In this document: piece by piece, positions 1,241 to 60,600 of the stretch | How positions within the stretch are numbered: the stretch's first letter is position 1 | Layout: each line of letters begins with the position of its first letter | DNA from: a virus | Direction: 5' to 3' (one strand) | Virus record (IMG/VR): IMGVR_UViG_2630968645_000001 | DNA length: 64,000 bases | Translations under genes and position numbers: made by a program | The notes under the pieces: model-generated | The model's database searches: none | What the model saw: the letters and a program-made list of their open reading frames with translations, nothing else | What the model was told of the DNA's origin: nothing

Positions 1241-1266
1241 GTTATTGACGAAGGGAGGCGAATGAA

Positions 1267-1470: not shown

Positions 1471-1492
1471 GCATCCTTCGGGGTGCTTTTTA
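1468..1492 (+). terminator. Intrinsic terminator
   Basis: aagcatcc-ttcg-gggtgctt followed by a T-run. Confidence 0.75.
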
Positions 1493-1543
1493 TTTTGCTC
1501 CAAAACAAACACAAATAGTCGGAGGTGGCAGGTGATGTAGCAG

Positions 1544-2311
1544 GTGACGGACAAATACATTCAAGCTGAAAAAGATTATGTCAAAGGCATGAAATACAAG
1601 GACATTGCTGAAAAATATGGCGTGTCTTTAAATACGGTCAAGTCATGGAAAAAGCGTTATGGTTGGACGCGTGAAAAGGGTGCACACAAAGAAAAAAGTG
1701 TGCACACAAAAAATAAAAGGGGCGCACCTGTCGGGAATATAAATGCAAAAGGAAATAAAGGCGGTGCGGCTCCAAAAGGAAACCAAAACGCTGTCACTCA
1801 CGGTTTCTTCTCCAAATATCTGCCACAGGAATCACTGGACATTCTGGAAGAGATTCAAGAGCATTCTCCCGTCGACATGCTCTGGGATCAGATAATGATT
1901 CAGTATGCTGCTATTATACGAGCGCAGAAAATAATGTTCGTTGAATCAAAAGATGAAATGATCAAGGAGATTAAGAAAACCAAGTCAGATATCGGGGAGA
2001 ATTACGAGACGAACGAAGAAGAGTGGGAATTTCAATTCGCTTGGGATCGCCAGGCGACTTTTCTTAACGCCCAATCTCGGGCCATGTCAGAACTGCGAAG
2101 CTTGATCAAGCAGTTTAATGAACTGGCACACGAAGATGATGAACGCCGTCTGAAGCTTGAACAGATGCAGCTAAACATTGATAAAACAAAAGCTAAGATT
2201 AAGGAAATCACGAATGAAAGCAACCAAGACGACCGGACGATCATCATCAACAACGAGGATGAAATGAGGCGGATTTTGAATGAACGCAATCAAGATAACC
2301 GACCTGATTAA
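1544..2311 (+). CDS. terS: Terminase small subunit (YqaS-like, N-terminal HTH)
   Basis: [39 protein letters not shown] motif, upstream of TerL. Confidence 0.9.
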
Positions 2312-3572: not shown

Positions 3573-3584
3573 GGCGGTGATGCC

Positions 3585-5108: not shown

Positions 5109-5114
5109 TAATCT

Positions 5115-29316: not shown

Positions 29317-31024
29317 CAGCTCTGAGGAGTAAAAATTTTTCGTGATAATTTAACTATTCCCCCCCCAAAAATGCGGCTAAATATGTAATAATTTAAATAA
29401 TTAGAGCTTGCTGGACGAATATTTTGGCATGGCTTAGTGACAAGTCGAATACAAGCTAAAATTTGATTCGTTCAGCAAGCCCTAATTAAACTTGGCTGTT
29501 TTGAGGGGGTTTTTATTTTGGTTACTAGAAAAGAAAAAAGAAATCGTGAAAAAGAAGCAAATTATTTTTTCGAGTTCCTTAAAATTCAGAAGCATTTTTT
29601 CAAAGACCTGATGAATAACCTAAAAAAGGTAGCAGACCACCGACATCAAAGCTATATCACTTATGGTCCAGAGGTCCTTTTATTTACGATGATGTTGAAA
29701 AATATGACCGGCCTAAAATCCATGAGAAACATGAGTGAGAGTTTTAATAAAGAAGAATGTATTAAAAATGTAGGGAAGGTGTTAGGCTTAGATTCTCTTG
29801 AAGAACTTCCACATTATGATACAATTAACGACTTTTTATCTGGCTTAGATGTAAATGAATTAGAAAAAATTAGAACGTATATGATTAAAGAATTATTGAA
29901 AAAAAGGTCTCTCGAGTCTTATCGAATTGAAGGAAAGTACTGGGGTGTCATCATTGATGGAACTGGATTACACACCTTTCATGAGAAACATTGTAAACAC
30001 TGCCTGAGACGGGCATATACAAATAAAGAAACAGGAGAAACGAACGTACTTTATATGCACCATGTACTTGAAGCCAAGCTTGTCGTGGGGGATATGGTCT
30101 TCAGTATTGCCTCCGAATTTATCGAAAATGAATCAGAAAATGTTTCTAAGCAAGATTGTGAATTAAAAGCCTTCGACAGGCTGGCAAAGAAAATAAAAAA
30201 AATATTTAAAAGACTACCGATTTGTATCTTGGGAGATAGTCTCTATGCATGTGAAACGGTATTTAATCTGTGCAGGGCGCACAAATGGAAATATATATGC
30301 AGATTTAAGGAAGGGAGAATTAAAAGTATCTCGACGGAGTTTAAGGCAATAAAAGAGCTGGAACAAAGTAAGGATCAGAATTCATTAGTTTGGGTGAATG
30401 ATATTGCCTACAAAGACAGAACGGTCAATCTGATGGAGGCCACAATGAAAACAGAGGATGGGAAATCGAAAGAGTATGTATTTATAACGGATATTAAAAT
30501 CACGAAAAAGAACGTGGAACGACTCATCGCTGCAGGAAGAAGCCGCTGGAAGATTGAAAATCAAGGATTTAACGAACAAAAAAATAATCGTTACAATATA
30601 GAACATGCCAATAGCCAAAACTACACAGCCATGAAAAATCATTATTTATTAGTTCAAATAACAGATATTATTAGACAGCTGTTTGAAAAAGGTTCGTCAA
30701 TCTTAAAAGCACTCAAAAAAACGGCAAAAGAAAAATCCTCAAATCTGTTGGAATCGTTTCGGACACGCATTTTAACAGACGAGGATTTCACCCATTTAAG
30801 TAAGCCAATACAAGTAAGGTTTACTTAATGGTTATATTATAGCAAAGGATGTGATGTAAAAAAAGGTTTTTTTGAAGTTATCCACAATTTTAAAAAAGAA
30901 ATTTGCAAATTCGGCTCTTTTTGACTTTGAAAGCAGAAAAAATAGATGGAAAAATTTTCTAAATGTGGATAAGTCATTTTATCATAAAACATCTAAAAAT
31001 TGATGAATTTACTCTTCAGAACTG
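29317..31024 (+). mobile_element. IS copy 2 with intact transposase, inserted in the lysis-cassette terminator
   Basis: Same IRs as copy 1; 9-bp TSD CTCGCAAAT (29308-29316, 31025-31033). Confidence 0.95.
29518..30828 (+). CDS. DDE transposase (436 aa)
   Basis: IIDGTG, LGDSLYA, GRSRWKIENQGF motifs. Confidence 0.92.
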   Translation: MVTRKEKRNREKEANYFFEFLKIQKHFFKDLMNNLKKVADHRHQSYITYGPEVLLFTMMLKNMTGLKSMRNMSESFNKEECIKNVGKVLGLDSLEELPHYDTINDFLSGLDVNELEKIRTYMIKELLKKRSLESYRIEGKYWGVIIDGTGLHTFHEKHCKHCLRRAYTNKETGETNVLYMHHVLEAKLVVGDMVFSIASEFIENESENVSKQDCELKAFDRLAKKIKKIFKRLPICILGDSLYACETVFNLCRAHKWKYICRFKEGRIKSISTEFKAIKELEQSKDQNSLVWVNDIAYKDRTVNLMEATMKTEDGKSKEYVFITDIKITKKNVERLIAAGRSRWKIENQGFNEQKNNRYNIEHANSQNYTAMKNHYLLVQITDIIRQLFEKGSSILKALKKTAKEKSSNLLESFRTRILTDEDFTHLSKPIQVRFT

Positions 31025-37398: not shown

Positions 37399-38334
37399 TT
37401 AATATGATGCCAATTCCTTAGAAAAATCATTGGATAGTTTATAGTCACTTGAATTTTTATATGCAGATAAACCATGCATAAATGGCTTTACATCTTTGTA
37501 AATTGCCGGATTGATGTAATATCCACTTGCCACTTTGTAAAACTTATATGGGTTCAGATCGACAAGATTCCGAAAGTTCCCGTAAGAAATCGAATTCGCA
37601 TCCTTTTTTGTAAAATAAGCAATAATTGCTGTTCCTGTAGTTTTGTTTCCTTTATTGTCTTCAAATGTCGTGTCACGGATAAAGGCAAATCCATTTACAT
37701 TCGGATTATTTTTTTCTTTTTCCATGAGTCGAGTACTGTATAAAGCGAAATTCTGGAGCATGGTTTTCTCATTCGTTTCAAATTCATCTTTGAATTCGAT
37801 CACTGCAATTTTATCTTTTATATAAGCTGTTTTTACATTGTCTTTATCTGCTTTTTTAGCGGCTAATTTTAACTCGGAGCTGCTGGATGCTCCTTTCATG
37901 GTATCTGATTCGACTGTATCCGAGCTGGAATCGGAAGAAGCTGTATTTGATTTATCATTTGTATCTTTACCAGTAAATTGATCGACAGAAGTGTCATAAG
38001 CTGTCAAAAGTCCCTGTTGCTCTTTCCTTATCAACACATAAGCGTTTGAGTTAATATCATCACTCATGTCAAATGTAAGAATTACATAAGAATCTTTTGC
38101 TAATTTATGTTTAATGCTGTAATACCACATGTTGCTATTATTAGGGTCTTTCTTCGTTGGCTTCCCTATTGCCTTAATCACTTGTTTTTTTGTCATTCCT
38201 ATTTTCAAATTTTTATATTCAGTTGGCGCAATATAGTTAACATGGCGCTTAGGCGCTTGAGCTTGAGGCTTGCCGCAGCCCATTAATGATAAAATTACAG
38301 ATAATGTTATTAATGAAATAACAATTTTTCTCAT
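37399..38334 (-). CDS. Lipoprotein of unknown function (superinfection exclusion candidate)
   Basis: Lipobox LMGC; LKIGMTKKQVIKAIGKP (SmpA/BLIP-like) repeat. Confidence 0.7.
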   Translation of the reverse strand: MRKIVISLITLSVILSLMGCGKPQAQAPKRHVNYIAPTEYKNLKIGMTKKQVIKAIGKPTKKDPNNSNMWYYSIKHKLAKDSYVILTFDMSDDINSNAYVLIRKEQQGLLTAYDTSVDQFTGKDTNDKSNTASSDSSSDTVESDTMKGASSSSELKLAAKKADKDNVKTAYIKDKIAVIEFKDEFETNEKTMLQNFALYSTRLMEKEKNNPNVNGFAFIRDTTFEDNKGNKTTGTAIIAYFTKKDANSISYGNFRNLVDLNPYKFYKVASGYYINPAIYKDVKPFMHGLSAYKNSSDYKLSNDFSKELASY

Positions 38335-38371
38335 ATATATTCGCCTCGAGTTATAAGTTTTTCCAGTTGGT

Positions 38372-38998
38372 TTACAGTGAAAATTGTTCCTTGCCGTTAG
38401 CCATGATTACTAAATTCTGCTTTTTTACGTTTGGAATTCTATAAAATATTGGATCTGGTTGTAGCTCACGTAATTCATCAGAATCTGTATTGAAAATACA
38501 AGTTTCCTGCAATAAATTTAAGCGGTTCAAAGCAAAATCAACCGTCACATTATATTCTTTCGCAAGTTCATCAGCTAAAATTTGACGATTATTATAATGT
38601 TGAGAAACATCAGCTTTTAATATCCAGCTAACCGGCATTAATAAATTTGCAGCCAATTTGAAAGCCTGCAGTTCCGTTTTATTCAGTGAATATTCGTTCA
38701 TCAGCAATTCGTTTGAATAGTGTAGATACAAATGAGAAAATTCTTCAGCAAGAATTTGTCTTTCGACAATTTCATTTTTGTATGTCCCTAATTCAATAAG
38801 GCCCCGTCGCTTATCTTTAATAGGCCAGGATCGACTGTATGGTTCCTTGATGTGATTTATTTTCATGCCATATAAATCGCATAGTGTAAATAGATCAATT
38901 TCAGACGGATGCTTGAATTGAACATGTTTCAATATTTTCTTTGCCTCTTCTTCGTAAAAATCTTTTTTCTTCATTAAAATAAATTGTCGAAGTCTCAT
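38372..38998 (-). CDS. ImmA/IrrE-family metallopeptidase (anti-repressor protease)
   Basis: LAEEFSHLYLH, ELQAFKLAANLLMP; downstream of the repressor. Confidence 0.85.
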   Translation of the reverse strand: MRLRQFILMKKKDFYEEEAKKILKHVQFKHPSEIDLFTLCDLYGMKINHIKEPYSRSWPIKDKRRGLIELGTYKNEIVERQILAEEFSHLYLHYSNELLMNEYSLNKTELQAFKLAANLLMPVSWILKADVSQHYNNRQILADELAKEYNVTVDFALNRLNLLQETCIFNTDSDELRELQPDPIFYRIPNVKKQNLVIMANGKEQFSL

Positions 38999-39021
38999 TG
39001 TTCCACCTCAAATCGGATATG

Positions 39022-39426
39022 TCATTCTAAATAGTCATTATCATCCTTTAATGCTTCCTCTACATATTTCTTGTATAACTCATAAGATTTTATCAAGTGC
39101 CTTACGTTTTTTTCGGGATCTTTTTTTAAATCATGGAATAATGATGGATGTTTCAATAATTCCTTAAAAACTTCATATTCATCTTTATCCAATGTGATTT
39201 TTTCTCCAGCAACATCAATTTCCTTGTCCTCTTCACCCAATATGTAAGCAGTCGTTACTCCAAATAAATCAGCAAACGCTTTTATTTCTTGGTCTTTCAA
39301 CGGACGTTTACCGGATTCAATTCTGCTTATCACCGAATAATCTATTCCTATTCGTTTTTCAACTTCCCTCAAAGACCAGTTGTTCTGTTCCCTTAGTTTT
39401 TTAATAATCTGACCTGGTTCGGACAT
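39022..39426 (-). CDS. XRE-family immunity repressor (ImmR/CI-like)
   Basis: WSLREVEKRIGIDYSVISRIESGKR HTH. Confidence 0.9.
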   Translation of the reverse strand: MSEPGQIIKKLREQNNWSLREVEKRIGIDYSVISRIESGKRPLKDQEIKAFADLFGVTTAYILGEEDKEIDVAGEKITLDKDEYEVFKELLKHPSLFHDLKKDPEKNVRHLIKSYELYKKYVEEALKDDNDYLE

Positions 39427-39439
39427 GGTATCACCACGC

Positions 39440-39812
39440 TTTTTTCTGTTTTAGCAATAATATTTTATCATGTTTCTGTTTTAGAAACATATTTTTTGCT
39501 GAAATAACAACAAAAAAATGTTGACTTTGCCAAAATAACAACTTATAATAGAGACAAGTTGTTAATATAGCAACAAGAAAGGAGGACATCATGCAACAGT
39601 TTAACCTTGCGTTCATTGTTAAAAGAAGGAAAGAACTCAATCTTTCACTTCAGTATATGGCGGATGGATTAGGATTCAGGAATGCCTCAACCTATTTAAA
39701 ATACGAAAGGGGAGAATATCAGTTAAGGGCAAATCAACTGCCCATTTTAGCCAAGCTACTGCAATGCAGTGTATCAGATTTTTTTATAAAAAACGTTGCT
39801 AAATCAGCAACA
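39440..39812. promoter_or_regulatory. Lysis/lysogeny switch: divergent promoters and TGTTGCT-N5-AGCAACA-type operators
   Basis: TTGACT-17-TATAAT at 39521-39549; palindrome TGTTTCT-gtttt-AGAAACA 39471-39489; related sites near 39442, 39495, 39525, 39556 and 39794. Confidence 0.75.
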
Positions 39813-39833
39813 AAAGCAAAGGAGGTTTGTTAA
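39591..39833 (+). CDS. Cro-like XRE regulator
   Basis: LSLQYMADGLGFRNASTYLKYERG HTH, divergent from the repressor. Confidence 0.85.
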   Translation: MQQFNLAFIVKRRKELNLSLQYMADGLGFRNASTYLKYERGEYQLRANQLPILAKLLQCSVSDFFIKNVAKSATKAKEVC

Positions 39834-40625
39834 TTGAACTCATTACAAGTTTTCAACTTTAAACAGAATGAAGTTCGCACCATTTTAAAAGGAGATGAAC
39901 CTTGGTTTGTCGCAAAAGATGTATCAGTTATTTTGGGTTTTGAGCATACACCAACAATGACACGCATTCTGGATGAAGATGAAAAGGGGGTACACATTGT
40001 GCACACCCCTGGCGGCGAGCAACACATGACAATTATTAATGAGCCTGGTTTGTATTCAGTCATTCTTAAAAGCCGCAAACCAGAAGCAAAAGAATTCAAA
40101 CGCTGGATTACCCACGAGGTTATCCCGTCCATCCGAAAACATGGCGCATATATGACACCAGAAACGCTCGAAAAAACAATCAGTGACCCGGATTTCTTAA
40201 TTGGTCTGCTCACTAATCTCAAAGAAGAAAAGGCAAAACGGGTTAAGGCCGAGCAAGAACGCAACCGGGTCATTGAACAACAAAGAGCTGATCTCCCATA
40301 CACCAGCTTTGGAAAAGTCGTGTCAAACTCAACCGGTGCAGTCAGCATTGGGGCTTTTGCCAAAATGCTTTATGACAAGCACGGTATCAATATTGGCCGA
40401 AACAAGCTGTTTGAGTGGTTGCGCTCCCATGGATATCTCATTTCTGGAGGACGTGAACATAACAATCCTAAACAAATTTATCTGGAACAAGGATTGTTTG
40501 TTGTAAAACCAACTATTGTCAGCCGAACAGAAGGTGATGTTGAGAAGCTTACACCTTTAATTACTGGCAAAGGTCAAATCAAAATCGCCGAACTCCTGAT
40601 CAAAGAATTTGAGGCGGTGGTCTAA
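39834..40625 (+). CDS. Antirepressor (Bro-N plus KilAC/ANT)
   Basis: PWFVAKDVS...INEPGLYSVILKSRKPEAKEFKRWITHEVIPSIRKHG; TPLITGKGQ. Confidence 0.92.
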   Translation: MNSLQVFNFKQNEVRTILKGDEPWFVAKDVSVILGFEHTPTMTRILDEDEKGVHIVHTPGGEQHMTIINEPGLYSVILKSRKPEAKEFKRWITHEVIPSIRKHGAYMTPETLEKTISDPDFLIGLLTNLKEEKAKRVKAEQERNRVIEQQRADLPYTSFGKVVSNSTGAVSIGAFAKMLYDKHGINIGRNKLFEWLRSHGYLISGGREHNNPKQIYLEQGLFVVKPTIVSRTEGDVEKLTPLITGKGQIKIAELLIKEFEAVV

Positions 40626-40626
40626 A

Positions 40627-40812
40627 ATGCGTCACAACACCCTAACAGTCCAGGAAGTTGCAACCTATTTAGGGGTTCATCCAGACACGATTTATACCAT
40701 GGTCCGTGAAAAGCAGATCCCATTTTTCCGAGTTAGGAAACGCATCTTCTTTTCACGTGAATCAATCGACAACTGGATTGCTGCCCAGGAAAACAGTGTT
40801 GCATCGTTCTAG
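40627..40812 (+). CDS. xis: Excisionase-like HTH_17 protein
   Basis: LTVQEVATYLGVHPDTIYTMVREKQIP. Confidence 0.8.
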   Translation: MRHNTLTVQEVATYLGVHPDTIYTMVREKQIPFFRVRKRIFFSRESIDNWIAAQENSVASF

Positions 40813-40872
40813 TTTTATCTTACTTTTTTTGATGTCCAGAATAAACAAGAACTTTGTACAGGAGGAAAACTG

Positions 40873-41391
40873 ATGAGAGAATCCGCAAAGGTGCAAGAAG
40901 CCTTGGCGATTCTGCAACAAGATGGGCTAACACAGAAACAGATCGCGAAGGACACTTATCAATCATACGAATCGGTTAACAAACAGCGAAAAGGGGAGAG
41001 GACCATGAACAAGGATGTTGCCCACCGGGCCATGCAGATCTACCAAAACTATGAGTTTGAGGCATCCATCCTGCACGAGTTTTCGGACGGCCTCGCTAGC
41101 CCGGTTATGGGCGGTCCATACGTCGAACGGCACCGAATGGTACTTGAAGAAATCACGGAAGCAGAGGTAAAAGATGTTATCAGGATCATCAATGAAGTTT
41201 CCTTGGTAAAGCCGCCAAATGTGTGTTCAAAGGACGAGCGGGAGAATGTCCGTCGCATGATGCACGAGCTCATTGAAGCGCGGGTGGCGATTGACAACCT
41301 GCTCATGGTGTTGGAAAGAGACTACGGACTTTCGGTTTTAGAAGAATCGAAGAAAGTCCTAAAAAAACTGAGAAGTGAGAGGAGAGTTTGA
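40873..41391 (+). CDS. Hypothetical XRE-like phage protein
   Basis: RBS GGAGG; N-terminal HTH-like segment. Confidence 0.7.
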   Translation: MRESAKVQEALAILQQDGLTQKQIAKDTYQSYESVNKQRKGERTMNKDVAHRAMQIYQNYEFEASILHEFSDGLASPVMGGPYVERHRMVLEEITEAEVKDVIRIINEVSLVKPPNVCSKDERENVRRMMHELIEARVAIDNLLMVLERDYGLSVLEESKKVLKKLRSERRV

Positions 41392-41675
41392 TGATTACCA
41401 AAGAAGATTTTCTACCGGCTGATTTGCCGAAGGCAATCGAACATTACAAATGCTGTAAAACCTGCCTGCATCTCGCTGAAACTGAACTGGAAATTGGGCA
41501 GATCGACATGGCAGAAATGCGAATGATTGATTTCAACCGGTCACTTGCAGAACTTAAGCGACTGAAGGAGCGGAAAGTTCAACAGGACCGAATCAATGCC
41601 ATGATCTTTGAGTTGATCGAAAAAGGCATTGATATTCACAAAATTATATTTTTGGGTGGCCAACAAAATGGGTGA
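41388..41675 (+). CDS. Hypothetical protein
   Basis: Coupled ORF in the early operon. Confidence 0.65.
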   Translation: MMITKEDFLPADLPKAIEHYKCCKTCLHLAETELEIGQIDMAEMRMIDFNRSLAELKRLKERKVQQDRINAMIFELIEKGIDIHKIIFLGGQQNG

Positions 41676-41963
41676 GCTATTTTTCATGGGGTTGTTCCTG
41701 CCGGCCATAATCATTGGGAGATGGGTTTTAGAGGAATGGTTGAAATGAATATTTACGAAAAGGCTGAAATTATTCTGAAGTCACTATCCGAATATATCAA
41801 CGTTGACGATGAAGCTTTTCATGACATTTACATTAAAGCAATTGTCAACGGATTGGTTGAAATCAGGAAAAAAGAAAAGCAGTAAGAAGTTGGCGCTTCA
41901 AACTGCCTATAACGTTCACGCATGTAATTTACTCTTTCATTGTATCACAGTGAGGTGTGTTAA

Positions 41964-42146
41964 ATGAAGAAAAAACTGACTAACTATTCAAGCGTTGATC
42001 ATCATTGGAAAAAGCTGCTAGGTTGCAAGTGCGGATGGTTCATTGAGACCACAGACGTGCTTCTCATTATCAAAGATTACAACCATAGCAGGCTAATTGA
42101 TTACAGGCAAGAAATTAAGTCGAAACTAGGCGCAATGATCGCCTAG
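41964..42146 (+). CDS. Hypothetical small protein
   Basis: RBS GAGGTG; its stop codon overlaps the ribozyme. Confidence 0.55.
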   Translation: MKKKLTNYSSVDHHWKKLLGCKCGWFIETTDVLLIIKDYNHSRLIDYRQEIKSKLGAMIA

Positions 42147-42185
42147 TCCGCCGGAGATAGCCTCCCGGCGCTGATGAGACAGGCT
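42119..42185 (+). ncRNA. Hammerhead ribozyme, type II
   Basis: GTC-GAAA-[CTAGGCG caatgat CGCCTAG]-TC-[CGCCGG...CCGGCG]-CTGATGA-GAC; GUC cleavage triplet 42146-42148. Confidence 0.88.
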
Positions 42186-42297
42186 GCGGAAAGGGGCGAA
42201 TCAATGAAAATTAAAACAGGTGATTGGCTTAAACTGAATCGTTTTGAAAAGCACATATTGTTGTGTTTGGCAATTCAAGCTGGAAGGAGTGAAAAGA

Positions 42298-42537
42298 GTG
42301 AAACAGCCAGTGCTTAATGTGAATGGGAAACGATTCAAAATCCATTCGATTAATTGGTATAAAAATGGTGAGATTTGCCATATCTCAGTTTTCATGAACG
42401 GGGAGAGCAAAACGATTTTCAATGATGATGCTTCTATCTTCAAGTACGGAATTGTTTTCGACGGTGAAACGGAAGATTCGTATTCACAGCATTACATGCT
42501 TGACTTAAGCCAGGAAGGAATGATTACGAATGATTAA
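42298..42537 (+). CDS. Hypothetical protein
   Basis: RBS GGAAGGAG before GTG, within ORF 42244-42537. Confidence 0.6.
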   Translation: MKQPVLNVNGKRFKIHSINWYKNGEICHISVFMNGESKTIFNDDASIFKYGIVFDGETEDSYSQHYMLDLSQEGMITND

Positions 42538-42742
42538 CACAATTGAACACCCGGATATTACCAGAGTGCGTCGATTTGGATATCTGCAAAATAATGAGCC
42601 GGAGCTTTTCGGTTATGACTACTTCGGTGATGAAATCTTTTATGGCGACGACGTGGTTGAAATGGATGGGGAGATTGTTTTACAAGACAATCTTCAAAAA
42701 TTTTTGGTTGAGCTCTACGACGCAAAGTTTTACACGGCATAA
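42530..42742 (+). CDS. YqaI-like protein
   Basis: IEHPDIT...DYFGDEIFYGDD; upstream of the YqaJ-like gene. Confidence 0.7.
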   Translation: MINTIEHPDITRVRRFGYLQNNEPELFGYDYFGDEIFYGDDVVEMDGEIVLQDNLQKFLVELYDAKFYTA

Positions 42743-42838
42743 TAAAAAACTTCCATTGCCGTGGGAGTAAGGTGCTTTAAATAAGACTACACCTTAATTC
42801 TATCGGTCTTTGAAAATTTTATCAAGAGGTGAAGAAGC

Positions 42839-43786
42839 ATGGCGATGAATCAAAACGCTATTCCCACAAAAGAAATGAGCCGGCATGAATGGCTTCAGGC
42901 TCGCACCAAGGGGATTGGCGGTAGTGATGCCGGCGTCATCCTTGGCTTGAATAAATACAAGACGCCTTTCGAACTCTGGCTTGAAAAGACTGGCCAGGTC
43001 GAGCCCCAAGAAGGCGACAGTGAAGCGATCTATTGGGGAAACCAAATGGAAAATGTCGTGGCAAAAGAGTTTGAAAAACGAACGGATAAAAAGGTACGCC
43101 GGTCAAACTTTATGTACAGCCATCCAGATTATCCTTTTATCCGTGCCAATGTCGATAGGTTGGTAGTTGGAGAATCGGCCGTACTTGAATGCAAGACGGC
43201 CAGCGCTTACCTTGCAAAAGAGTGGGCAGGTGACGAGGTTCCAGCCTCTTACCTTGTCCAAGTCCAGCACTATCTGGGCGTTACCGGCAAGGAAAAAGGA
43301 TATATTGCCGTGCTGATCGGAGGGAATCGGTTCGTATGGAAAGAAATCGAACGCGACGATGAACTGATCAGCATGATTTTCCAAGCTGAAAAGGATTTTT
43401 GGGAAAACAATGTGCTGGCCGGAGTTGCCCCTGAACTGGACGGAAGCAGCGCGGCTGAGAAGTATCTGGCCGAAAAATATGCCAAATCGGATCCTGATAA
43501 AGAGATCGTTCTTCCAAAAGATTTCAATGCCTATTTGGAAGAATACTTCAAAATCAAGGAAAACGAGAAGCTGATTAAAGCTGCGAAAACTGAGATTGAA
43601 AACAAACTTAAAGCTGAGCTGAAAGAAGCGGAGATTGGCCGGGTTGGCGACTATATCGTCACTTGGAAGAAGCAGGTACAGAAACGCGTTGATTCCAAAG
43701 CATTACGGGAAAAGTTCCCCGATATTCACCAGCAAGTTATTAAAGAAACATCATTCCGCAAACTTGCGGTTAAGGAGGAAAAATAA
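42839..43786 (+). CDS. YqaJ-like viral recombinase exonuclease
   Basis: WLQARTKGIGGSDAG, RANVDRLV, LECKTA, YLVQVQHY motifs. Confidence 0.95.
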   Translation: MAMNQNAIPTKEMSRHEWLQARTKGIGGSDAGVILGLNKYKTPFELWLEKTGQVEPQEGDSEAIYWGNQMENVVAKEFEKRTDKKVRRSNFMYSHPDYPFIRANVDRLVVGESAVLECKTASAYLAKEWAGDEVPASYLVQVQHYLGVTGKEKGYIAVLIGGNRFVWKEIERDDELISMIFQAEKDFWENNVLAGVAPELDGSSAAEKYLAEKYAKSDPDKEIVLPKDFNAYLEEYFKIKENEKLIKAAKTEIENKLKAELKEAEIGRVGDYIVTWKKQVQKRVDSKALREKFPDIHQQVIKETSFRKLAVKEEK

Positions 43787-44694
43787 TGGCAACAAATGCA
43801 GCGCTAAAAAACCAAATTGCAAGTAAACAGGAAGGAACCAAACAAGTATCTGCTCAATCGTTGGGGTTAAAAGCTTTGCTCAATACCCCAACGATGCAAA
43901 AAAAGTTTGAACAAGTTTTGGACAAGAAGGCACCACAATTTATGTCTTCTCTGCTCAACCTTTATAACGGTGATCCGAACATTCAGGCCGCCGAGCCAAT
44001 GAGTATTATTTCAAGTGCAATGGTCGCAGCAAGCCTTGATCTTCCAGTTGACAAAAACCTAGGTTATGCCTGGATCGTTCCATTTTATGACAGTAAGAAA
44101 GGCCATAAGGTAGCACAGTTCCAGCTTGGTTATAAGGGGTACATTCAACTGGCATTACGGACTGGTCAATATAAAGCAATTAACGTCATCGCTGTTCATG
44201 AAGGTGAGCTCATTAAGTGGAACCGGCTGACCGAAGAAATCGAACTGGATTTAGAAGGTGCCACAAGCGAGAAGGTAATCGGATACTGCGGATATTTCAA
44301 GCTGATCAATGGCTTTGAAAAGACGGTCTACTGGACCAAGGATGAGATCGAAGCGCACAGGATTAAGCATAACAAGATGAAGGACAAGAATGCTCTCAAT
44401 AATGTATGGAAAAGCGATTATGACGCTATGGCCATGAAAACGGTCATCCGCAACATGCTCAGTAAGTGGGGAATTTTGAGCATTGAAATGCAGACGGCTG
44501 TCATTGAGGACGAAAAGGAAACACATGATATCACGGATGAAACGAATGCGGAAGAACCTGAAATCATTGATTACAATCCAGAACCGGAAGCCAAGAAAGA
44601 AAAAGCGCCACAACCGGAGCAGGCAAAGAAACAGGCAAAAGTGGAAGATAAGAAATCGGCTGTTGAAATGGATGAAAATGACCTTCCATTCTGA
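43786..44694 (+). CDS. recT: RecT single-strand annealing protein
   Basis: LDLPVDKNLGYAWIVPF, QFQLGYKGYIQLALRTG, MAMKTVIR motifs. Confidence 0.95.
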   Translation: MATNAALKNQIASKQEGTKQVSAQSLGLKALLNTPTMQKKFEQVLDKKAPQFMSSLLNLYNGDPNIQAAEPMSIISSAMVAASLDLPVDKNLGYAWIVPFYDSKKGHKVAQFQLGYKGYIQLALRTGQYKAINVIAVHEGELIKWNRLTEEIELDLEGATSEKVIGYCGYFKLINGFEKTVYWTKDEIEAHRIKHNKMKDKNALNNVWKSDYDAMAMKTVIRNMLSKWGILSIEMQTAVIEDEKETHDITDETNAEEPEIIDYNPEPEAKKEKAPQPEQAKKQAKVEDKKSAVEMDENDLPF

Positions 44695-44750
44695 AAAAAT
44701 CCCCCTCACCTCGAGGGGGAAACAACACAGGAAATTGAGGTGGTGAAAGC

Positions 44751-45566
44751 ATGGCCAACATATACAGAGTCCAAAAGAACGGCAACTACGTCGTAATGAA
44801 TAAAACATCGCTTATGGATGAACGGCTGAGCTGGAAAGCGAAAGGGCTGCATGCCTATATGCTTTCTTTACCCGACGATTGGAGGTTTTATGACACAGAG
44901 TTGCAAAAACATGCTAAGGACGGACGCGACTCACTTCGGACTGCGCTTAAAGAACTGCGAGATCTGGGTTATTTAAAGCGGGTGCAGCACCGGAATGAGG
45001 ACGGGACATTCAACTATGAAACACTTGTTTTTGAAGTCCCTCAAATGGATCAACCGTTACCGGGAAAACCGTTGACGGAAAATCCGCTTACGGAAAAACC
45101 GTTGACGGATTATCCGTCGACGGAAAACCCGAAACTACTAAGTAATAAAGAACTAAGTATTGATGAACTAAATAATAATGGACTAAATAATGAAGCAGCT
45201 GCTGTAAATAAGCTTCTCAATCGATTTATAGAGTTAAGGAATCACGGATTTGTGGCTACCCCTAAGGATAAAGCAGCAGCAGATGAGATCATCCAATACG
45301 GTGTCAATGTCGATGATGCAATCAAATGGATGGAAGAGAAATTTGCGTCTTACCAGCCTAAACATCCAAAAGACTACATCAAGACGCTTGACTATTGCGC
45401 CGGATATATATTTGACCGGTTTATCGAGAAGCAGGAAGCAGAGAGAGGTGAAGACAATGGAACAAAGATTCCAAAGTATCGCAGAAGTTATGGCCGACCT
45501 GCTGGAAAAAGCGCAGAACAGGCAATCCGAGAAGCCGAAGAAGCAAGACGAGCTTGGGGCGGATGA
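44751..45566 (+). CDS. Phage replication initiator (N-terminal HTH)
   Basis: LSWKAKGLHAYMLSLPDDW...DSLRTALKELRDLGY; contains internal iterons. Confidence 0.85.
   Translation: MANIYRVQKNGNYVVMNKTSLMDERLSWKAKGLHAYMLSLPDDWRFYDTELQKHAKDGRDSLRTALKELRDLGYLKRVQHRNEDGTFNYETLVFEVPQMDQPLPGKPLTENPLTEKPLTDYPSTENPKLLSNKELSIDELNNNGLNNEAAAVNKLLNRFIELRNHGFVATPKDKAAADEIIQYGVNVDDAIKWMEEKFASYQPKHPKDYIKTLDYCAGYIFDRFIEKQEAERGEDNGTKIPKYRRSYGRPAGKSAEQAIREAEEARRAWGG
45054..45128 (+). repeat. Replication-origin iterons: five CCGT-N2-ACGG-type units at a 15-bp period, followed by an AT-rich tract
   Basis: ccgttaccgg, ccgttgacgg, ccgcttacgg, ccgttgacgg, ccgtcgacgg at 45054/69/84/99 and 45114. Confidence 0.85.
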
Positions 45567-46356
45567 TTACGAATGCCCGATTTGTAAGGATACGGAATTT
45601 GTTTTTTATCGGAATGAGCAGGGATATGAAGTTGCTAAGCCTTGCGAATGTCGGGAAAGAAAAGCATGGCGGCGCCGGTTCCGAAACTCCATGATTCCAG
45701 ATGAGTTTACAAACGCCAATTTTGAAAACTATCAGCGTACGAGCCAAATCCAAGAAGACATGTATGACCTTACAAAAAGGTATTTGCAAGAATACAAGAT
45801 GACGACCAATGAAAATGGCGAAAAGGAAAAAACGGTTTCTTCCCATAATTTTGGGTTGATTGCAGTTTTTGGCGAACAGCGCATGAAAGAATTGCCATCA
45901 GCAGAGCGGGCCGCCGTGAAACAGCAACATAACAATTTTGGGATTGGAAAGACTCATCTGCAGATTGCACTGGCAAAACGCCTGATTAAAGACGGATTCA
46001 ATGTTCTGGTTATATCAGATGTCACTTTCATGGATGAGCTTATTCAGGCCCGAATGATGAACGATGAGGGAGAGCAGCTGAACCGTTTGCTTTATGCGGC
46101 CACAAATGCAGATGTACTGATTTGGGATGACATCGGCAAAGTGAAGTGGTCGGAAGCGAAGGAATCTCTTTACTACCAGATTATTAACGAGCGATACCGG
46201 AAACAGAAACCGATTGTATTCAACTCGAATGAGGATCGCGGCACCTTGGCAGAAAAAGTAGGATATGCGGCCGCAAGCCGGCTAATTGGGCAGTGCGGAA
46301 AATACCTGCTTGAAGCCGAGGGGACTGACTGGCGTATCAAGAAAGGAGCAAGCTGA
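45457..46356 (+). CDS. DnaC/IstB-like helicase loader
   Basis: CPICKD...CEC Zn motif, GIGKTHL Walker A, LIWDDIG Walker B. Confidence 0.9.
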   Translation: MEQRFQSIAEVMADLLEKAQNRQSEKPKKQDELGADDYECPICKDTEFVFYRNEQGYEVAKPCECRERKAWRRRFRNSMIPDEFTNANFENYQRTSQIQEDMYDLTKRYLQEYKMTTNENGEKEKTVSSHNFGLIAVFGEQRMKELPSAERAAVKQQHNNFGIGKTHLQIALAKRLIKDGFNVLVISDVTFMDELIQARMMNDEGEQLNRLLYAATNADVLIWDDIGKVKWSEAKESLYYQIINERYRKQKPIVFNSNEDRGTLAEKVGYAAASRLIGQCGKYLLEAEGTDWRIKKGAS

Positions 46357-46536
46357 TGTGTGAACTATGCAATGGCCGGCATGTTGTTTACGAGGATATG
46401 GGATTTGGAATCATGGTAAAACCTTGCCCGGCGTGCGGACCGAAGCCGCAAGAGCAAATTAAGAAAGAAGAAATCATTTTGCAACGACGTTTGGAAGAAG
46501 CACGGGATCAACTCAAGATAGAAAGGGTGTACTAAA

Positions 46537-46695
46537 ATGACAAACGCCACAATTACCGAGTTGAAGCGGAGCCACCTACTCCGCCAACTCGAAAATAACG
46601 GTGTAACTCAATTCAATAATCAATCAATCTACGACTTATCTTATCACGATCTGGTGTACGCTTTAACCCTCCAAAAAATACAAATGGGGGATTGA
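46537..46695 (+). CDS. FbpA-like small basic protein
   Basis: MTNATITELKRSHLLRQLENNGV...LSYHDL read manually; below the ORF track cutoff. Confidence 0.5.
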   Translation: MTNATITELKRSHLLRQLENNGVTQFNNQSIYDLSYHDLVYALTLQKIQMGD

Positions 46696-46696
46696 T

Positions 46697-46894
46697 ATGG
46701 CAAAAAATCCGGTTATCCAGCAGGCTTATGAGCGTGGCAAGCGTGAGGGAATCGAGATCGGCATGCAGATGGGCATTAGCAAAGCGATTGGATTTATGCA
46801 GGCAAGGCTAAACAAACTGGCTGAGACGCCCGGGATCGGGCCCAAGACGATAGAAAAATTTAAGAAAGCATTTGGGGAGGAGTACTTTAAGTGA
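46697..46894 (+). CDS. Hypothetical protein
   Basis: Common phage small ORF (TPGIGPKT). Confidence 0.65.
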   Translation: MAKNPVIQQAYERGKREGIEIGMQMGISKAIGFMQARLNKLAETPGIGPKTIEKFKKAFGEEYFK

Positions 46895-47523
46895 ACCTAC
46901 AAAAATTATTTGAAGCACAGGCGGAACTGGACCAGCACATTATTGAAAAGAAAGGATTGCAGGGCGTTAATTTGCTACCGAACTTAATCCTGGCTTTGCA
47001 AGTTGAGCTCGGAGAATGTGCGCAAGAATGGCGAGGGTTTAAGTTTTGGCGCAATGACCAAGAGCCGAGAACAGAAATACCGATTGATTGTCCGTATTGT
47101 TACGGTAAAGGTTACATGAACCACGATGAAGTTTTTGAAGGTGGAGAACCTTGGCCTTGTAAAAGGTGTGATGGATCAGGTGTTTACGGATACAAAAATC
47201 CTTTACTTGAAGAATACGTTGATTGCCTGCATTTTATTTTGAGCATTGGAAACCGTCTTGGGTTGCAAGATATAAATCCTTGGTATTCCAGTGTTGCGGT
47301 CAGCTTTGGCGCCGATAAATTAACAATGCAATGGCAAGAAGTATTTGAATGTGCTTCAACTTTTAGACAATATACAGAAGATAGCAGAAAAGCATGGTAT
47401 GAATTTCTTTTTTCAAACTTCCTTGGACTAGGTGAAATGCTCGGCTTTACCTGGGAACAAATCGAGAAAGCGTACTTTGAGAAAAACAAAGTGAACTATA
47501 GACGGCAGGAAAATGGATATTGA
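46891..47523 (+). CDS. dut: Dimeric (all-alpha) dUTPase with a Zn-finger insertion
   Basis: LILALQVELGECAQEWRGFKFW, LLEEYVDCLHFILSIG, YFEKNKVNYRRQ motifs. Confidence 0.92.
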   Translation: MNLQKLFEAQAELDQHIIEKKGLQGVNLLPNLILALQVELGECAQEWRGFKFWRNDQEPRTEIPIDCPYCYGKGYMNHDEVFEGGEPWPCKRCDGSGVYGYKNPLLEEYVDCLHFILSIGNRLGLQDINPWYSSVAVSFGADKLTMQWQEVFECASTFRQYTEDSRKAWYEFLFSNFLGLGEMLGFTWEQIEKAYFEKNKVNYRRQENGY

Positions 47524-47532
47524 GGTGCAAAC

Positions 47533-47994
47533 ATGCAGGAACGAATGACAGCGAAAGAATACCGCCAGCTTACCAAGAAAACGAAGTACGGATCGAAAAA
47601 AGTTAAATTGGACGGATATGTTTTTGACAGCAAAATCGAAGCCCGTTACTACGAGCAATTGAAATGGCTTCAGGAAAACAATCGAATCTTATTTTTCCGG
47701 CTACAGCCGCGGTACTTGCTTCAGGAAGCTTTCGAGAAAAACGGAAAAAAATACCGCAAGATTGAGTACATCGCAGATTTTGAGATTCACCATTTGGATG
47801 GATCCATCGAGGTTGTGGATGTAAAGGGCATGGAAACTGAAGCGTTCAAGATAAAGAAAAAGCTGTTCGAGCATAAATATCCCCATAAACTCAGCCTGGT
47901 TACATACAGCAAGAAATGGGGCGGATGGATTGAATTGGAGGAATTGGAGAAGAAACGGAAGGCAGCGAAGAAAATAGCGCAGGCAGGGATTTAG
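47533..47994 (+). CDS. DUF1064 family PD-(D/E)XK nuclease
   Basis: KYGSKKVKLDGYVFDSKIEARYY, YIADF, VVDVKG motifs. Confidence 0.88.
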   Translation: MQERMTAKEYRQLTKKTKYGSKKVKLDGYVFDSKIEARYYEQLKWLQENNRILFFRLQPRYLLQEAFEKNGKKYRKIEYIADFEIHHLDGSIEVVDVKGMETEAFKIKKKLFEHKYPHKLSLVTYSKKWGGWIELEELEKKRKAAKKIAQAGI

Positions 47995-48109
47995 GCGCTG
48001 GACTTCTCTATTGCCTCATATACCCGTTTTAAAACGGAACATGACTATTTATATACCAAAATCTTAAAACGGCTTATAAGCCAAAATAAACAGTTTAGGA
48101 GTGGTATGG

Positions 48110-48289
48110 ATGACAGTAACTTACGTTCATGATCCTTAGGACAGATACAATCTCCGAACCAGCACCGGATGGAGAGCCAAACGCCCCGGCAAGGTTACAA
48201 TCTGGTATCTAACTCCGGAACAGCTGGAACGAGTAAGACGCGGTGAGCGCACGACCGATGTGATTGGAAATGACAAGAAGGGTCACTGA
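48110..48289 (+). pseudogene. 59-codon ORF with an in-frame TAG at codon 10
   Basis: ATG ACA GTA ACT TAC GTT CAT GAT CCT TAG GAC AGA ... YLTPEQLERVR ... TGA, all in one frame. Confidence 0.6.
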
Positions 48290-48436
48290 ACATCGGGCCA
48301 TATCTCATGACCGGGAAGAATTAATGGTCATCACGGTTTTTGAAGAAGGCCTAAACAAGGAACAGGTGCGTAAGGAAAGTATCTTTAGCAAGAGACACGC
48401 CGTGTTGGTGAAACGTGACGGCAAATACGACTGGAA

Positions 48437-49147
48437 GTGATGGAGACAATGTCGGTTGACCGGATGATCAAGCTTTTTGAAAAACTGCGATACAGGCACG
48501 ATATGTTTACTGTCTTTGCGGATTTTCTTGAAATGTCGGCGATATCTATTTCAAACGCAGTAGATTTTCAACATATGAAAGAGCGTGAGGCACGATACAT
48601 GGATATCGTGAAAAAGTATGACAAGAAGGAAATGAAAATATTTCCTCAAATCCTGGGTGAGCTGATTAACTCACTGGACAAGCATCCGTCAGATGTGCTG
48701 GGTGATATCTTTATGAAATTGGAACTTTCAAGTTCCTGGCATGGTCAGTTTTTTACACCGATGTCGCTTGCAAATATGTTTGCAGAACTGACAATTAGCG
48801 GATATGAGAAGCAAATTAAGAAGAACGGTTACTTCACATTAAATGAGCCTGCTTGTGGTGGAGGAGCAACCATAATCGGCATGGTCAATGCATTGGAAAA
48901 ACGAAAGTTAAATTATCAGGCCTGTATGCGGGTTGTGGCACAAGATATCGATGCAAAAGCAGTTCACATGTGTTATCTGCAGCTGAGCCTTCTTGGCGTG
49001 GATGCGGTCATTCTGCAGGGCGATACGCTTTCCTATAAATTTTCAGACGTATGGATGACGCCAAACCATATTTTGAGATGGGCACGTTCACGGAAACCAG
49101 TACCGGATCCAAAACCGCAATTTGAACAACTAAGCCTTGCACTTTGA
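48437..49147 (+). CDS. Short N6-adenine methyltransferase-like protein (HsdM-like fragment)
   Basis: GQFFTPMSLA, EPACGGG, AQDID, GDTL motifs; no NPP(Y/F). Confidence 0.8.
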   Translation: MMETMSVDRMIKLFEKLRYRHDMFTVFADFLEMSAISISNAVDFQHMKEREARYMDIVKKYDKKEMKIFPQILGELINSLDKHPSDVLGDIFMKLELSSSWHGQFFTPMSLANMFAELTISGYEKQIKKNGYFTLNEPACGGGATIIGMVNALEKRKLNYQACMRVVAQDIDAKAVHMCYLQLSLLGVDAVILQGDTLSYKFSDVWMTPNHILRWARSRKPVPDPKPQFEQLSLAL

Positions 49148-49216
49148 ATGGGTGTATAAAAAAAGCCGGGTTCCCCCGGCGTGGTAAACAGCTGATACCT
49201 AATTTTACCACGAGGG

Positions 49217-49420
49217 GTGAACCTATTGGAAGATAATAAACAAAACATGACAACTGAAATAGATTTGATGGAGACAGCTGTGTATATCGTCCAGGATGGG
49301 CAGCTGACTAAAGTGACTCCAAAATCTTTTGGCCAGGATATCTTGATATGGCAAAACGGAAAGGTTTTTGATATAGAGCGTATCGATCGGATGAGACTAA
49401 TCGGGCAGGATGTCATATAG
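49217..49420 (+). CDS. DUF3954-like protein
   Basis: AVYIVQDGQL...FGQDILIWQNGKV motif. Confidence 0.7.
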   Translation: MNLLEDNKQNMTTEIDLMETAVYIVQDGQLTKVTPKSFGQDILIWQNGKVFDIERIDRMRLIGQDVI

Positions 49421-49577
49421 GATGGAGGTGAAAGATATGAAACCAAAGGTACGGAAAAAGGGCGAAAAATTTCGCCCGATTGTAACGGTGCTAAAGGTAA
49501 AGCGAGGCCTGCCGACAAAAATTATGGTGAGTGGCCAGGAATATGCATTGATCCATAAAAACCAATACAAGGGATAG

Positions 49578-49760
49578 GAGCAAGTTATGAGAACAATAGT
49601 TTTTCTAAGAAACAGGGGACCACAATTCACGCCAATCGAGGAAGAATTTGAGTTTGAAGATAATTCGACGGATAAAGAAATCATAGATGCATTTGAGGAT
49701 TGGGTTTGGGATGAAGTTGGTGAAGAATTCACTTGGTTTGAGAAAGAGGAGGATAAATAA
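49578..49760 (+). CDS. Hypothetical acidic protein
   Basis: RBS GGAG; EEEFEFEDNSTDKEIIDAFEDWVWDEVG read manually; ends approximate. Confidence 0.5.
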   Translation, partial: EQVMRTIVFLRNRGPQFTPIEEEFEFEDNSTDKEIIDAFEDWVWDEVGEEFTWFEKEEDK

Positions 49761-50113
49761 TGAACCTACAAAAATTATTTAAAGCGCAGGCGGAATTGGA
49801 CAAACACATTATTGGTTGAACCAAAATTCGAAGGGTGGACAATTATGACAAAAGATGAATTGATTGAATTATTAAAAGCGAATGAACTTGCAGGAGATGC
49901 GAAAGTATTCATTCCTAGCAGATACGATGACGGTTCATTAGTTGAATTAGATGAAGTTAACATTGACCGAATTGGTACATTAAAAAATCCAATAGAAGTC
50001 ATTGTACTGTATTGAAAGAAGGAGATAGTGAAATGTTACTGATTTTTCTTGGCGGATTCATTTTCGGCCTGTCACTTGGCAGGCTGATATGGAATAAATA
50101 GTGAGGTGACAAG

Positions 50114-57690: not shown

Positions 57691-60600
57691 TATGGGCACA
57701 TTACGTGGTGAGTTGAAGAAATGGGGAAAGCAGAATCAAAATAAGGAAAATAAGCCACGAGGAAGGCCGAGAAAGACGAAATCAGAGCGATTAAGTCAAC
57801 ACGATATAAAAACACTTATGGGATATTATGATCCCGTATATAAGCGAGGGAGAGGCGGAGCATGGAGAAATGGAAGATGAACAAGCAAGAAATCTCACAG
57901 GCATTAAAGGATTATCATTGGATGATCAACGAAATCAAGAGACAGCGTAAAATGCTGGAGAATGAAGTGAGAAGCAACATCACATCCCAATATGGGGAAG
58001 AATCCGCCTTACCGAAGCCAAAAGGAACAAATAGTGATCCGGTTTACCGTGAAATTTTACGTCGGGAGAAAACGCATCAATGGATTAATCGGCTGCAGAA
58101 GAAAGTTCTATTTATTCAGGAACATGTTGATTGTGTACGAGGAGAACGCGAACGTGCTGTGCTGGAGTGCCTGCTGGACGGGATGAGCGTAATTGCCATT
58201 AGCCGGCACATGGGACTATCAGAAAGGAATATTCGTCTTATACGGGAAGACATTGTCAATGCTATGTATGAAAATGCCGGATTTGCCGGAAATGCCGGAT
58301 TTGCCGGTTTTGCAGGATAGATGCAGCACAAGAAAAAATATATGTAAAATGGAAGGCAGGACCGGAGAGGAAAAATCCGGGGCGTGAGAAATTTCACGAA
58401 AACCATAATTCACCTTGCGGTGAATAATTAAGGGTTCGAGGTTATCCCGGACGAGCTTCTTAATTCGAGACGGGGTAGCAGAAATGTGGACCTGGGTTAA
58501 AACCTTGTCGGTTTCGAGGCTTATTTTATTGCAGGAATTTGCCTTCTTTTGTCGAAGTTATTGACGAAGGGAGGCGAATGAAATGAAGGTTTATGAACTA
58601 ATCAAGGAATTAGAAAACTATCCACATCAAGATGCAGAGATTGGCGTGAATTTCCAAATAACATTAGCACAATCTGATAAAATAATTTCCAATATCACTA
58701 AAGTAAACGGCATCTTGAAACCTTTAAACAAAAATGATAATACGACGGTATTATTAGACACAGAAGAAATCAGAGAAAACATTTAAGCATCCTTCGGGGT
58801 GCTTTTTATTTTGCTCCAAAACAAACACAAATAGTCGGAGGTGGCAGGTGATGTAGCAGGTGACGGACAAATACATTCAAGCTGAAAAAGATTATGTCAA
58901 AGGCATGAAATACAAGGACATTGCTGAAAAATATGGCGTGTCTTTAAATACGGTCAAGTCATGGAAAAAGCGTTATGGTTGGACGCGTGAAAAGGGTGCA
59001 CACAAAGAAAAAAGTGTGCACACAAAAAATAAAAGGGGCGCACCTGTCGGGAATATAAATGCAAAAGGAAATAAAGGCGGTGCGGCTCCAAAAGGAAACC
59101 AAAACGCTGTCACTCACGGTTTCTTCTCCAAATATCTGCCACAGGAATCACTGGACATTCTGGAAGAGATTCAAGAGCATTCTCCCGTCGACATGCTCTG
59201 GGATCAGATAATGATTCAGTATGCTGCTATTATACGAGCGCAGAAAATAATGTTCGTTGAATCAAAAGATGAAATGATCAAGGAGATTAAGAAAACCAAG
59301 TCAGATATCGGGGAGAATTACGAGACGAACGAAGAAGAGTGGGAATTTCAATTCGCTTGGGATCGCCAGGCGACTTTTCTTAACGCCCAATCTCGGGCCA
59401 TGTCAGAACTGCGAAGCTTGATCAAGCAGTTTAATGAACTGGCACACGAAGATGATGAACGCCGTCTGAAGCTTGAACAGATGCAGCTAAACATTGATAA
59501 AACAAAAGCTAAGATTAAGGAAATCACGAATGAAAGCAACCAAGACGACCGGACGATCATCATCAACAACGAGGATGAAATGAGGCGGATTTTGAATGAA
59601 CGCAATCAAGATAACCGACCTGATTAATCCAGTGTTTTATGATTTCTGGCTAAATGAGAAGCCAAACAGTGTGCTAAAAGGCGGCCGTTCATCCATGAAA
59701 TCCTCGGTCATCTCTTTGAAATTGCTTGTTGATTTTTTAAATGATGATCAGGGGAATGTTGTGGTGCTGCGGAAAGTAGGAAAATATCTTTCCACATCCG
59801 TTTATGAACAAATCAAATGGGCCATATACATGCTCAAAGTCGAAAATGAATTCTACTTTGGAAAATCACCATTGATCATTCGGCACAAACGGACGAACAC
59901 GGCTTTTTATTTTTACGGCGTTGATGATCCGATGAAAATCAAATCCGCCAAGATTGCAAAGGGATATGTCATGGCACTTTGGTTCGAGGAACTGGCCGAG
60001 TTCGCAGGCGTCGAGGATATCGATATTGTTTCCGATACATTCATCCGGCAGGACCTGGGCGAAAAGGAAGTAAAAATTTATTATTCTTACAACCCACCTC
60101 GAAACCCGTATGAGTGGGTGAATGAATGGGTAGATAGCAAAGCTAGCGATCCGGATTATTTTGTTCACCATTCAACGTACATGGATGATGAAAAAGGTTT
60201 CTTGTCGCATCAGATGATCCGGAAAATTGAACAATACAAGGAAAATGATCTTGATTACTGGCGCTGGATGTATGCGGGTGAAATTATCGGACTTGGCGAT
60301 ATGGTTTACAATATGAACCATTTCCATTGGATTGATGAATTGCCAAGTGATGATGATCTGCTGCTGATCGATATCGCGATTGACTCCGGATACCAAACAT
60401 CGGCGACAACATTTTGTGCGTTTGGGCTTACAAAACGGCTTAATGTTATTCTGCTCGATACTTTTTACTATTCCCCTCAAAATCGAGTGGTTAAGAAGGC
60501 ACCAAGTGAGTTCTCGGACGACTTGAAAGAGTTTGAAAGGGAACTATCGAGGTTTAAAAGAAACATCGATATGAGGACGATAGACAGTGCAGAAGGAGCG

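Follow-up and report, generated by a model that had tools for sequence, protein, structure and literature searches.

Early operon and the hammerhead element

The DNA analyzed here, a 64-kb stretch of viral sequence that we refer to as the window, carries a classic temperate-phage switch, with ImmA/IrrE peptidase and HTH repressor genes on the minus strand (38372–39426). A near-consensus sequence on the plus strand, TTGACT-17-TATAAT (39521–39549), is, judged by its consensus match (11/12), probably the early rightward promoter, and a cro-like HTH gene (39591–39833, +) follows it. The plus-strand order then continues with a Bro-N/KilAC antirepressor, several small ORFs, a hammerhead sequence, and two small ORFs. 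Beyond these lie a YqaI-like gene (42530–42742, +; Pfam PF09466, 1.5e-8), a YqaJ exonuclease (42839–43786, +; PF09588, 1.4e-44), RecT (43786–44694, +; PF03837, 1.4e-47), a DnaC/IstB-like loader, a dUTPase, and a DUF1064 gene. The distance from the promoter to the hammerhead is ~2.6 kb, and no plus-strand terminator was predicted between the two. This supports the initial annotation, which had placed the element in an early operon upstream of recombination and replication genes.

A megablast search of window positions 38000–50000 against deposited phages gave no matches, and tRNA genes were found near the ribozyme neither in the window nor in the related loci L242, L243, and L246. Five consecutive ORFs (152, 255, 430, 507, and 369 aa) at 546–6224 reappear with the same lengths at 57862–63540; judged by ORF lengths alone, this offset of 57,316 nt suggests that the window is wrapped around a circular or permuted genome of ~57.3 kb.

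The hammerhead is located on the plus strand between two cistrons of the early operon, a 60-aa ORF (41964–42146, +), which has no Pfam family, and a 37-aa ORF (42204–42317, +), which would be the leading cistron on the 3' product of the predicted cleavage. Next comes a 79-aa ORF (42298–42537, +) with a GTG start after GGAAGGAG; it has no Pfam family, and its relatives in IMG/VR range from 52 to 99% identity. A tblastn search with the two small ORFs flanking the ribozyme found no matches in deposited phages. A Shine-Dalgarno-like sequence, GGAAAGGGG (42188–42196, +), begins 3 nt past the last paired base of the ribozyme and ends 7 nt before the ATG at 42204. The spacing of about 20 nt to the ribosome-binding site given earlier therefore needs correction, since the Shine-Dalgarno sequence is only ~3 nt away and it is the ATG that follows after 19 nt.

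The initial annotation had proposed a search with Rfam hammerhead models, and RF02276 (Hammerhead_II) matched 42118–42188 (+), a span of 71 nt, over model positions 1–66 of 66. The score of 39.4 bits (E = 1.7e-4, with all 4227 Rfam families searched against the entire window) exceeds the gathering score of 37, the margin being just 2.4 bits. Our own covariance model, R1, assigns the same element 80.4 bits. Shuffled windows would be expected to contain the bare core pattern 0.11 times each, a figure that leaves 21 further base pairs uncounted. Neither Rfam nor our covariance model detected a second hammerhead or another self-cleaving ribozyme in the 64-kb window, and no other RNA family reached its gathering score there. 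A relaxed search of 30000–64000 (E up to 1) yielded weak, chance-level matches to unrelated families and no further ribozyme. Given the Rfam score and E-value, the low expectation for the core pattern, and the fact that this is the sole ribozyme match, a chance origin is unlikely.

Read 5' to 3', with a slash at the predicted cut, the element is AGUC GAAA C-UAGGCG-CAAUGAU-CGCCUA-G UC / CGCCGG-AGAUAGCCUC-CCGGCG CUGAUGA GAC AGGCU GCG. Its strand order is stem II 5' strand, GAAA, stem III hairpin, GUC, stem I hairpin, CUGAUGA, and stem II 3' strand. Stem II is formed by GUC (42119–42121) and GAC (42178–42180), and this helix is open, the hallmark of type II. The following GAAA (42122–42125), comprising G12, A13, A14, and A15.1, aligns with the invariant GAAA of the Rfam consensus. 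Stem III pairs CUAGGCG (42126–42132) with CGCCUAG (42140–42146) around a loop at 42133–42139, and addition of A42125–U42147 extends the 7 bp initially described to 8 bp (42125–42132 with 42140–42147). The GUC cleavage triplet occupies 42146–42148, its last base aligning with the C17 position in Rfam, which puts the predicted scissile bond between C42148 and C42149. The stem I hairpin with loop I (42149–42170) consists of CGCCGG (42149–42154) paired with CCGGCG (42165–42170), all six pairs being G-C or C-G. Residues C3 to A9 of the core, CUGAUGA, align at 42171–42177, and the 3' strand of stem II, GAC, is followed immediately by the 3' arm of the pseudoknot, AGGCU, the two together covering 42178–42185. 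This arm (42181–42185) pairs over 5 bp with AGCCU (42159–42163) in loop I, where at least 4 bp between loop I and the sequence 3' of stem II are expected of this class (PMC3088659).

We took the core to comprise C3 U4 G5 A6 N7 G8 A9, G12 A13 A14, the pair A15.1–U16.1, H17, and the pair G10.1–C11.1. All of these are present, as CUGAUGA (42171–42177), GAA (42122–42124), A42125–U42147, C42148, and the closing pair G42178–C42121. Both stem I and stem III end in loops and stem II is open, in keeping with type II topology. The core motifs CUGAUGA, GAAA, and GUC, the 6-bp stem I, and the open 3-bp stem II had thus been read correctly from the sequence, and the suggested pairing of AGCCU in loop I with AGGCU proved to be a pseudoknot that covaries in relatives. 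A nested minimum free energy fold of the hammerhead was no better than that of shuffled sequences (z = −0.83) and did not cleanly reproduce stem I. Such folds cannot model a pseudoknot, and the result is therefore uninformative here. By score, core, topology, pseudoknot, and covariation in relatives, 42118–42188 (+) is confirmed as a type II hammerhead ribozyme.

The ribozyme also overlaps a gene. The 60-aa ORF extends 28 nt into it, so that the 5' domain of the hammerhead encodes the last ten codons (AAG...GCC TAG). As had been noted initially, the overlap takes in the stop codon: the TAG at 42144–42146 sits in the 3' arm of stem III, and the predicted cleavage would consequently fall 2 nt past it.

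Copies in relatives and family covariation

In the IMG/VR virus G001, the early region is 96% identical to that of the window and the ribozyme is identical. The more diverged loci L243–L245 keep the whole layout, with 5 differences in the 68-nt element and ~15% divergence in the flanks. These differences comprise stem I pair 2, in which G-C is replaced by A-U and is thus compensated, and three bases of loop III. The copy in L242 scores 42.7 bits with Hammerhead_II. In L242–L245 the homologue of the 60-aa ORF has diverged in sequence and ends at the same TAG inside stem III; judged by this conservation, the ORF is genuine. The 37-aa ORF shares 35 of 37 residues with that of L243, and the nucleotide changes are mostly synonymous.

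L242 further differs by a 260-nt insert (1143–1400) between the hammerhead and the 37-aa ORF. The insert contains two T-arm-like hairpins, GUCGG-UUCGAUU-CCGAC and CAAGG-UGCAAAU-CCUUG, neither of which is recognized by ARAGORN or Rfam, and then a strong Shine-Dalgarno sequence and a 27-aa hydrophobic ORF (MILTFISWIVSILSLIVSIVVMIQYRN). It resembles a moron whose product would be a small membrane peptide and whose leader is structured.

The nearest named relative, Anoxybacillus phage A403 (MG969427.1 / NC_048701.1), has a Hammerhead_II match of 39.7 bits (L001 3978–4043; about 30291–30356 of the record, minus strand). In the deposited genome it falls in a 220-nt gap between two hypothetical genes and bears no annotated feature. 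The location is syntenic, after cro, the antirepressor, and small ORFs and before the YqaI-like gene, and A403 carries AAGGAGGUG at the position equivalent to the Shine-Dalgarno sequence of the window. DNA similarity between A403 and the window is confined to a 40-nt stretch of the hammerhead and parts of the antirepressor gene. Stem III of A403 is wholly different in sequence yet complementary (CCGGGA/UCCCGG), while stem I and the pseudoknot are as in the window; no ORF overlaps the A403 hammerhead. Compensatory change thus maintains stem III in A403 and stem I pair 2 in L243–L245, as it does in the family-wide counts below. We also considered a larger conserved RNA cassette around the hammerhead and rejected it, as the similarity with A403 ends where the ribozyme does, and close relatives have coding sequence on either side of it. 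One relative whose downstream gene is 52% identical has no hammerhead within 800 nt upstream, indicating that the ribozyme is not tied to that gene.

A pattern scan collected over 200 loci in viral contigs. Another 10 came from species genomes, among them Aneurinibacillus, Paenibacillaceae, Lachnospiraceae, Christensenella, Desulfoluna, and Brevundimonas. In the class containing Aneurinibacillus, Hammerhead_II matched 7 of 151 sampled species genomes, with scores above the cut-off in 4. Model R1 was built from 12 sequences; 150 matches were aligned, and 145 distinct members were counted. Across the three stems and the pseudoknot, 94.5% of cells were paired in these 145 members compared with 66.3% after shuffling, and the covariation score was 0.661 compared with 0.157. 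Changes on both sides were seen for 20 of the 21 pairs, and sliding the partners by 1–3 columns left at most 40% paired. A pair count made without alignment, indexed outward from the core, agreed with the aligned count.

Since the pattern used for collection fixed the core and stem II, covariation is evidence for stems I and III and for the pseudoknot, not for the core; stem II itself was 99.3% paired, with all three pairs changing on both sides in some members. Stem I was 98.5% paired and covaried at all six pairs. Stem III was 96.5% paired with two-sided changes at 6 of 7 pairs, and 4 of the 5 pseudoknot pairs covaried strongly. Complementarity between loop I and the tail averaged 5.0 bp, as against 3.67 ± 0.07 bp when tails were swapped between sequences.

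Placement at gene boundaries

In the family, the ribozyme fills the gap between genes. A Shine-Dalgarno sequence, start codon, and ORF of at least 30 codons occur within 60 nt downstream of 121 of 147 unique copies (82%), compared with 22% for positions picked at random on the same strand and 12 of 148 for the opposite strand. When ORFs of at least 50 codons were considered upstream, the stop codon ended within −3 to +1 of the first G of the ribozyme in 153 of 197 copies (78%). These placement counts are raw-ORF heuristics in which the tight packing of phage genes inflates proximity on both sides; packing alone is no explanation for the single-base precision at the 5' edge of the ribozyme. In 68 copies, the upstream stop is UAG and stem II begins with its G.

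The window copy departs from this layout, as a stop located 15 nt or more inside the ribozyme is rare (13 of 197 copies). A TAA at 42116–42118 abuts the first base of the ribozyme, as is typical for the family, but it is out of frame with the 60-aa ORF. It may date from a recombination event that brought in the ribozyme along with the stop codon of another gene.

We tested the idea of a fixed partner gene and rejected it; downstream of 50 members, no gene family accounted for more than 3 of 144 ORFs. The downstream genes that can be named belong to early DNA metabolism and include Mu transposase, PD-(D/E)XK nucleases, RecT, YqaJ, ArdC, and ParB. Many relatives have the same ribozyme before every gene of an array. 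In the IMG/VR loci L030, L080, L031, and L005, arrays hold 7 to 10 type II hammerheads within a few kb (for example, L030 8123–11324 and L080 3616–6707), and they exceed in size the published examples we consulted.

A different arrangement occurs in L221 at about 1500–2360 (genome G075, contig C20, 7054–7910), where seven Hammerhead_II matches of 45–55 bits form a 128-nt tandem repeat after an HNH-like ORF. Each unit consists of the ribozyme and a G/U-rich spacer of ~60 nt, and no ORF respects the period. Self-cleavage would free RNAs of ~128 nt with 5'-OH and cyclic-phosphate ends, and the repeat could serve as an array of non-coding RNA or as the precursor from which circular RNAs form.

Proposed processing of the early transcript

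As far as its sequence and position indicate, the element most likely serves to cut the early polycistronic mRNA by self-cleavage, upstream of the genes for recombination and replication. We put a probability of roughly 80% on the reading that this is an active-type, pseudoknot-stabilized type II hammerhead in the early rightward transcript that self-cleaves to split the operon mRNA. Transcription of the 71 nt would be followed by folding of the three stems and of the pseudoknot that joins loop I to the 3' tail, and the RNA would then cut itself after C42148. Of the two products, the upstream one would carry a 2',3'-cyclic phosphate and the downstream one a 5'-OH. The former, with the regulatory and small early genes, would end in ...UAG UC>p with stem III as a terminal hairpin. 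The downstream piece would start at the base of the G-C-rich stem I hairpin and continue through the pseudoknot arm, the Shine-Dalgarno sequence, and the 37-aa ORF into YqaI/YqaJ/RecT and the replication genes. The two halves of the operon would in this way become separate mRNAs with their own hairpin-capped ends, and their stability and translation would then be uncoupled. Folding predictions for the 3' products of the window and A403 revealed no shared helix masking the Shine-Dalgarno sequence, and sequestration of that sequence by the ribozyme was rejected.

Type II hammerheads with a loop I pseudoknot cleave in vitro, natural pseudoknotted hammerheads cleave fast, and processing of long phage transcripts was proposed for the type by Perreault et al. 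in 2011 (PMC3088659). For three type II copies that lie near phage-like genes in Desulfovibrio vulgaris, cyPhyRNA-seq has shown cleavage in vivo (PMC8782182). These belong to the same Rfam family as the window copy and adjoin hypothetical and phage-like genes; they come from a different phylum and set an experimental precedent for the activity of such copies in cells. We infer that the window copy would cleave in vivo, and we infer an effect on expression that could be either stabilizing or destabilizing. The family-wide order of stop codon, ribozyme, and Shine-Dalgarno sequence fits mRNA processing, and the role of bacterial and phage hammerheads is still termed largely elusive in a review that counts the processing hypothesis as unproven (PMC6765202).

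A downstream fate opposite to protection is suggested by the glmS ribozyme of Bacillus subtilis, whose 5'-OH product is degraded by RNase J1 (PMC11780869, as cited there from Collins 2007). By this precedent, cleavage by the hammerhead could destabilize the downstream mRNA instead of protecting it, and the element would act as a constitutive down-tuner, reducing how strongly the recombination and replication genes are expressed compared with those upstream. A Bacillaceae-like host lineage, with A403 infecting Anoxybacillus, is compatible with such a role. The predicted downstream product, however, opens with a hairpin of six G-C/C-G pairs, leaving no single-stranded 5' nucleotide, and a strong Shine-Dalgarno sequence directly follows; 5' stem-loops and bound ribosomes are 5' stabilizers recognized in B. 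subtilis (references in PMC3997798). Arrays with a ribozyme before every gene are also hard to square with a purely destructive role, and we regard this outcome as unlikely. The glmS ribozyme resembles the window copy in being self-cleaving, in lying in an mRNA leader of Bacillota, and in leaving a 5'-OH on the coding fragment, but it depends on a metabolite, differs from it in fold without any relation, and is tied to one gene, and its destabilizing outcome is documented.

The coding overlap raises another scenario. Because the 60-aa ORF stops within stem III, terminating ribosomes must melt the ribozyme along with the hairpin supposed to protect the 3' end, and the frequency of cleavage or the fate of the upstream mRNA might track translation of this ORF. 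Diverged relatives keep the overlap with the same TAG, and it is rare in the family; A403, on the other hand, has the same ribozyme free of an overlapping ORF, the overlap may be just tolerated, and fast pseudoknotted hammerheads (PMC3088659) could act ahead of the first ribosome. Translational gating of this kind appears quite improbable. The stronger proposal, that ribozyme and ORF are deliberately interlocked, with ribosome traffic gating the folding and cleavage yielding a near non-stop mRNA with a hairpin to melt, we likewise hold as a long shot; if true, the resulting translation-coupled timer would separate the regulatory early genes from the recombination and replication genes. Far less probable still is an inactive relic or chance look-alike that has no function as RNA. 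An Rfam score barely above threshold and an unremarkable minimum free energy fold might be read that way, but the core is complete, 21 base pairs are arranged in four helices including the pseudoknot, the core pattern alone is expected only 0.11 times per window, and the changes in A403 and L243–L245 are compensatory, none being disruptive.

Processing of the early mRNA by the hammerhead, our preferred reading, would do without any protein what RNase III does to the early transcripts of phages, and in nature it would parallel the synthetic RiboJ insulator. The RNase III sites of phage early mRNAs, as in the T7 early region, are cut between cistrons and leave hairpins at the new ends; they need the host protein RNase III, and the ends produced are 5'-phosphate and 3'-OH. 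They share no sequence or fold with the hammerhead, the likeness lying in the intercistronic cut and the hairpin ends. RiboJ, which boosts expression of the genes it insulates, also places a hammerhead directly upstream of the Shine-Dalgarno sequence and fixes the mRNA 5' end regardless of the sequence upstream; in contrast, it was engineered from a type III hammerhead of satellite RNA to which a hairpin was added, and its place is behind a promoter, not between natural cistrons (PMC6206723).

Compared with the RF02276 hammerheads described previously (PMC3088659), the window copy has the same core, open and short stem II, closed stems I and III, pseudoknot of at least 4 bp, phage or prophage context, and intergenic position in a polycistronic unit. 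It differs in being single in 64 kb, where published clusters flank genes (Fig. 3 of PMC3088659), and in having a 5' domain that also encodes the final ten codons of a conserved ORF. The class, its pseudoknot, the association with prophages, and the processing hypothesis have been known since 2011, so the window copy is a clean new example and not a new type. On the sequence comparisons made here, the conserved overlap of coding sequence with the ribozyme is its one modest peculiarity.

The literature that we searched contains no mention of hammerheads in Geobacillus, Anoxybacillus, or coagulans phages, and the present analysis adds a well-supported one for temperate phages of thermotolerant Bacillaceae. 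The family survey puts numbers on a layout hitherto described only qualitatively in the literature, in which the upstream stop usually marks the start of the ribozyme, the G of UAG often belonging to both, and a few bases separate the ribozyme's end from the ribosome-binding site that follows. With a single copy, this layout, and A403 available on a cultured Anoxybacillus strain, these phages offer a simple system for the effects of phage hammerheads on mRNA fate.
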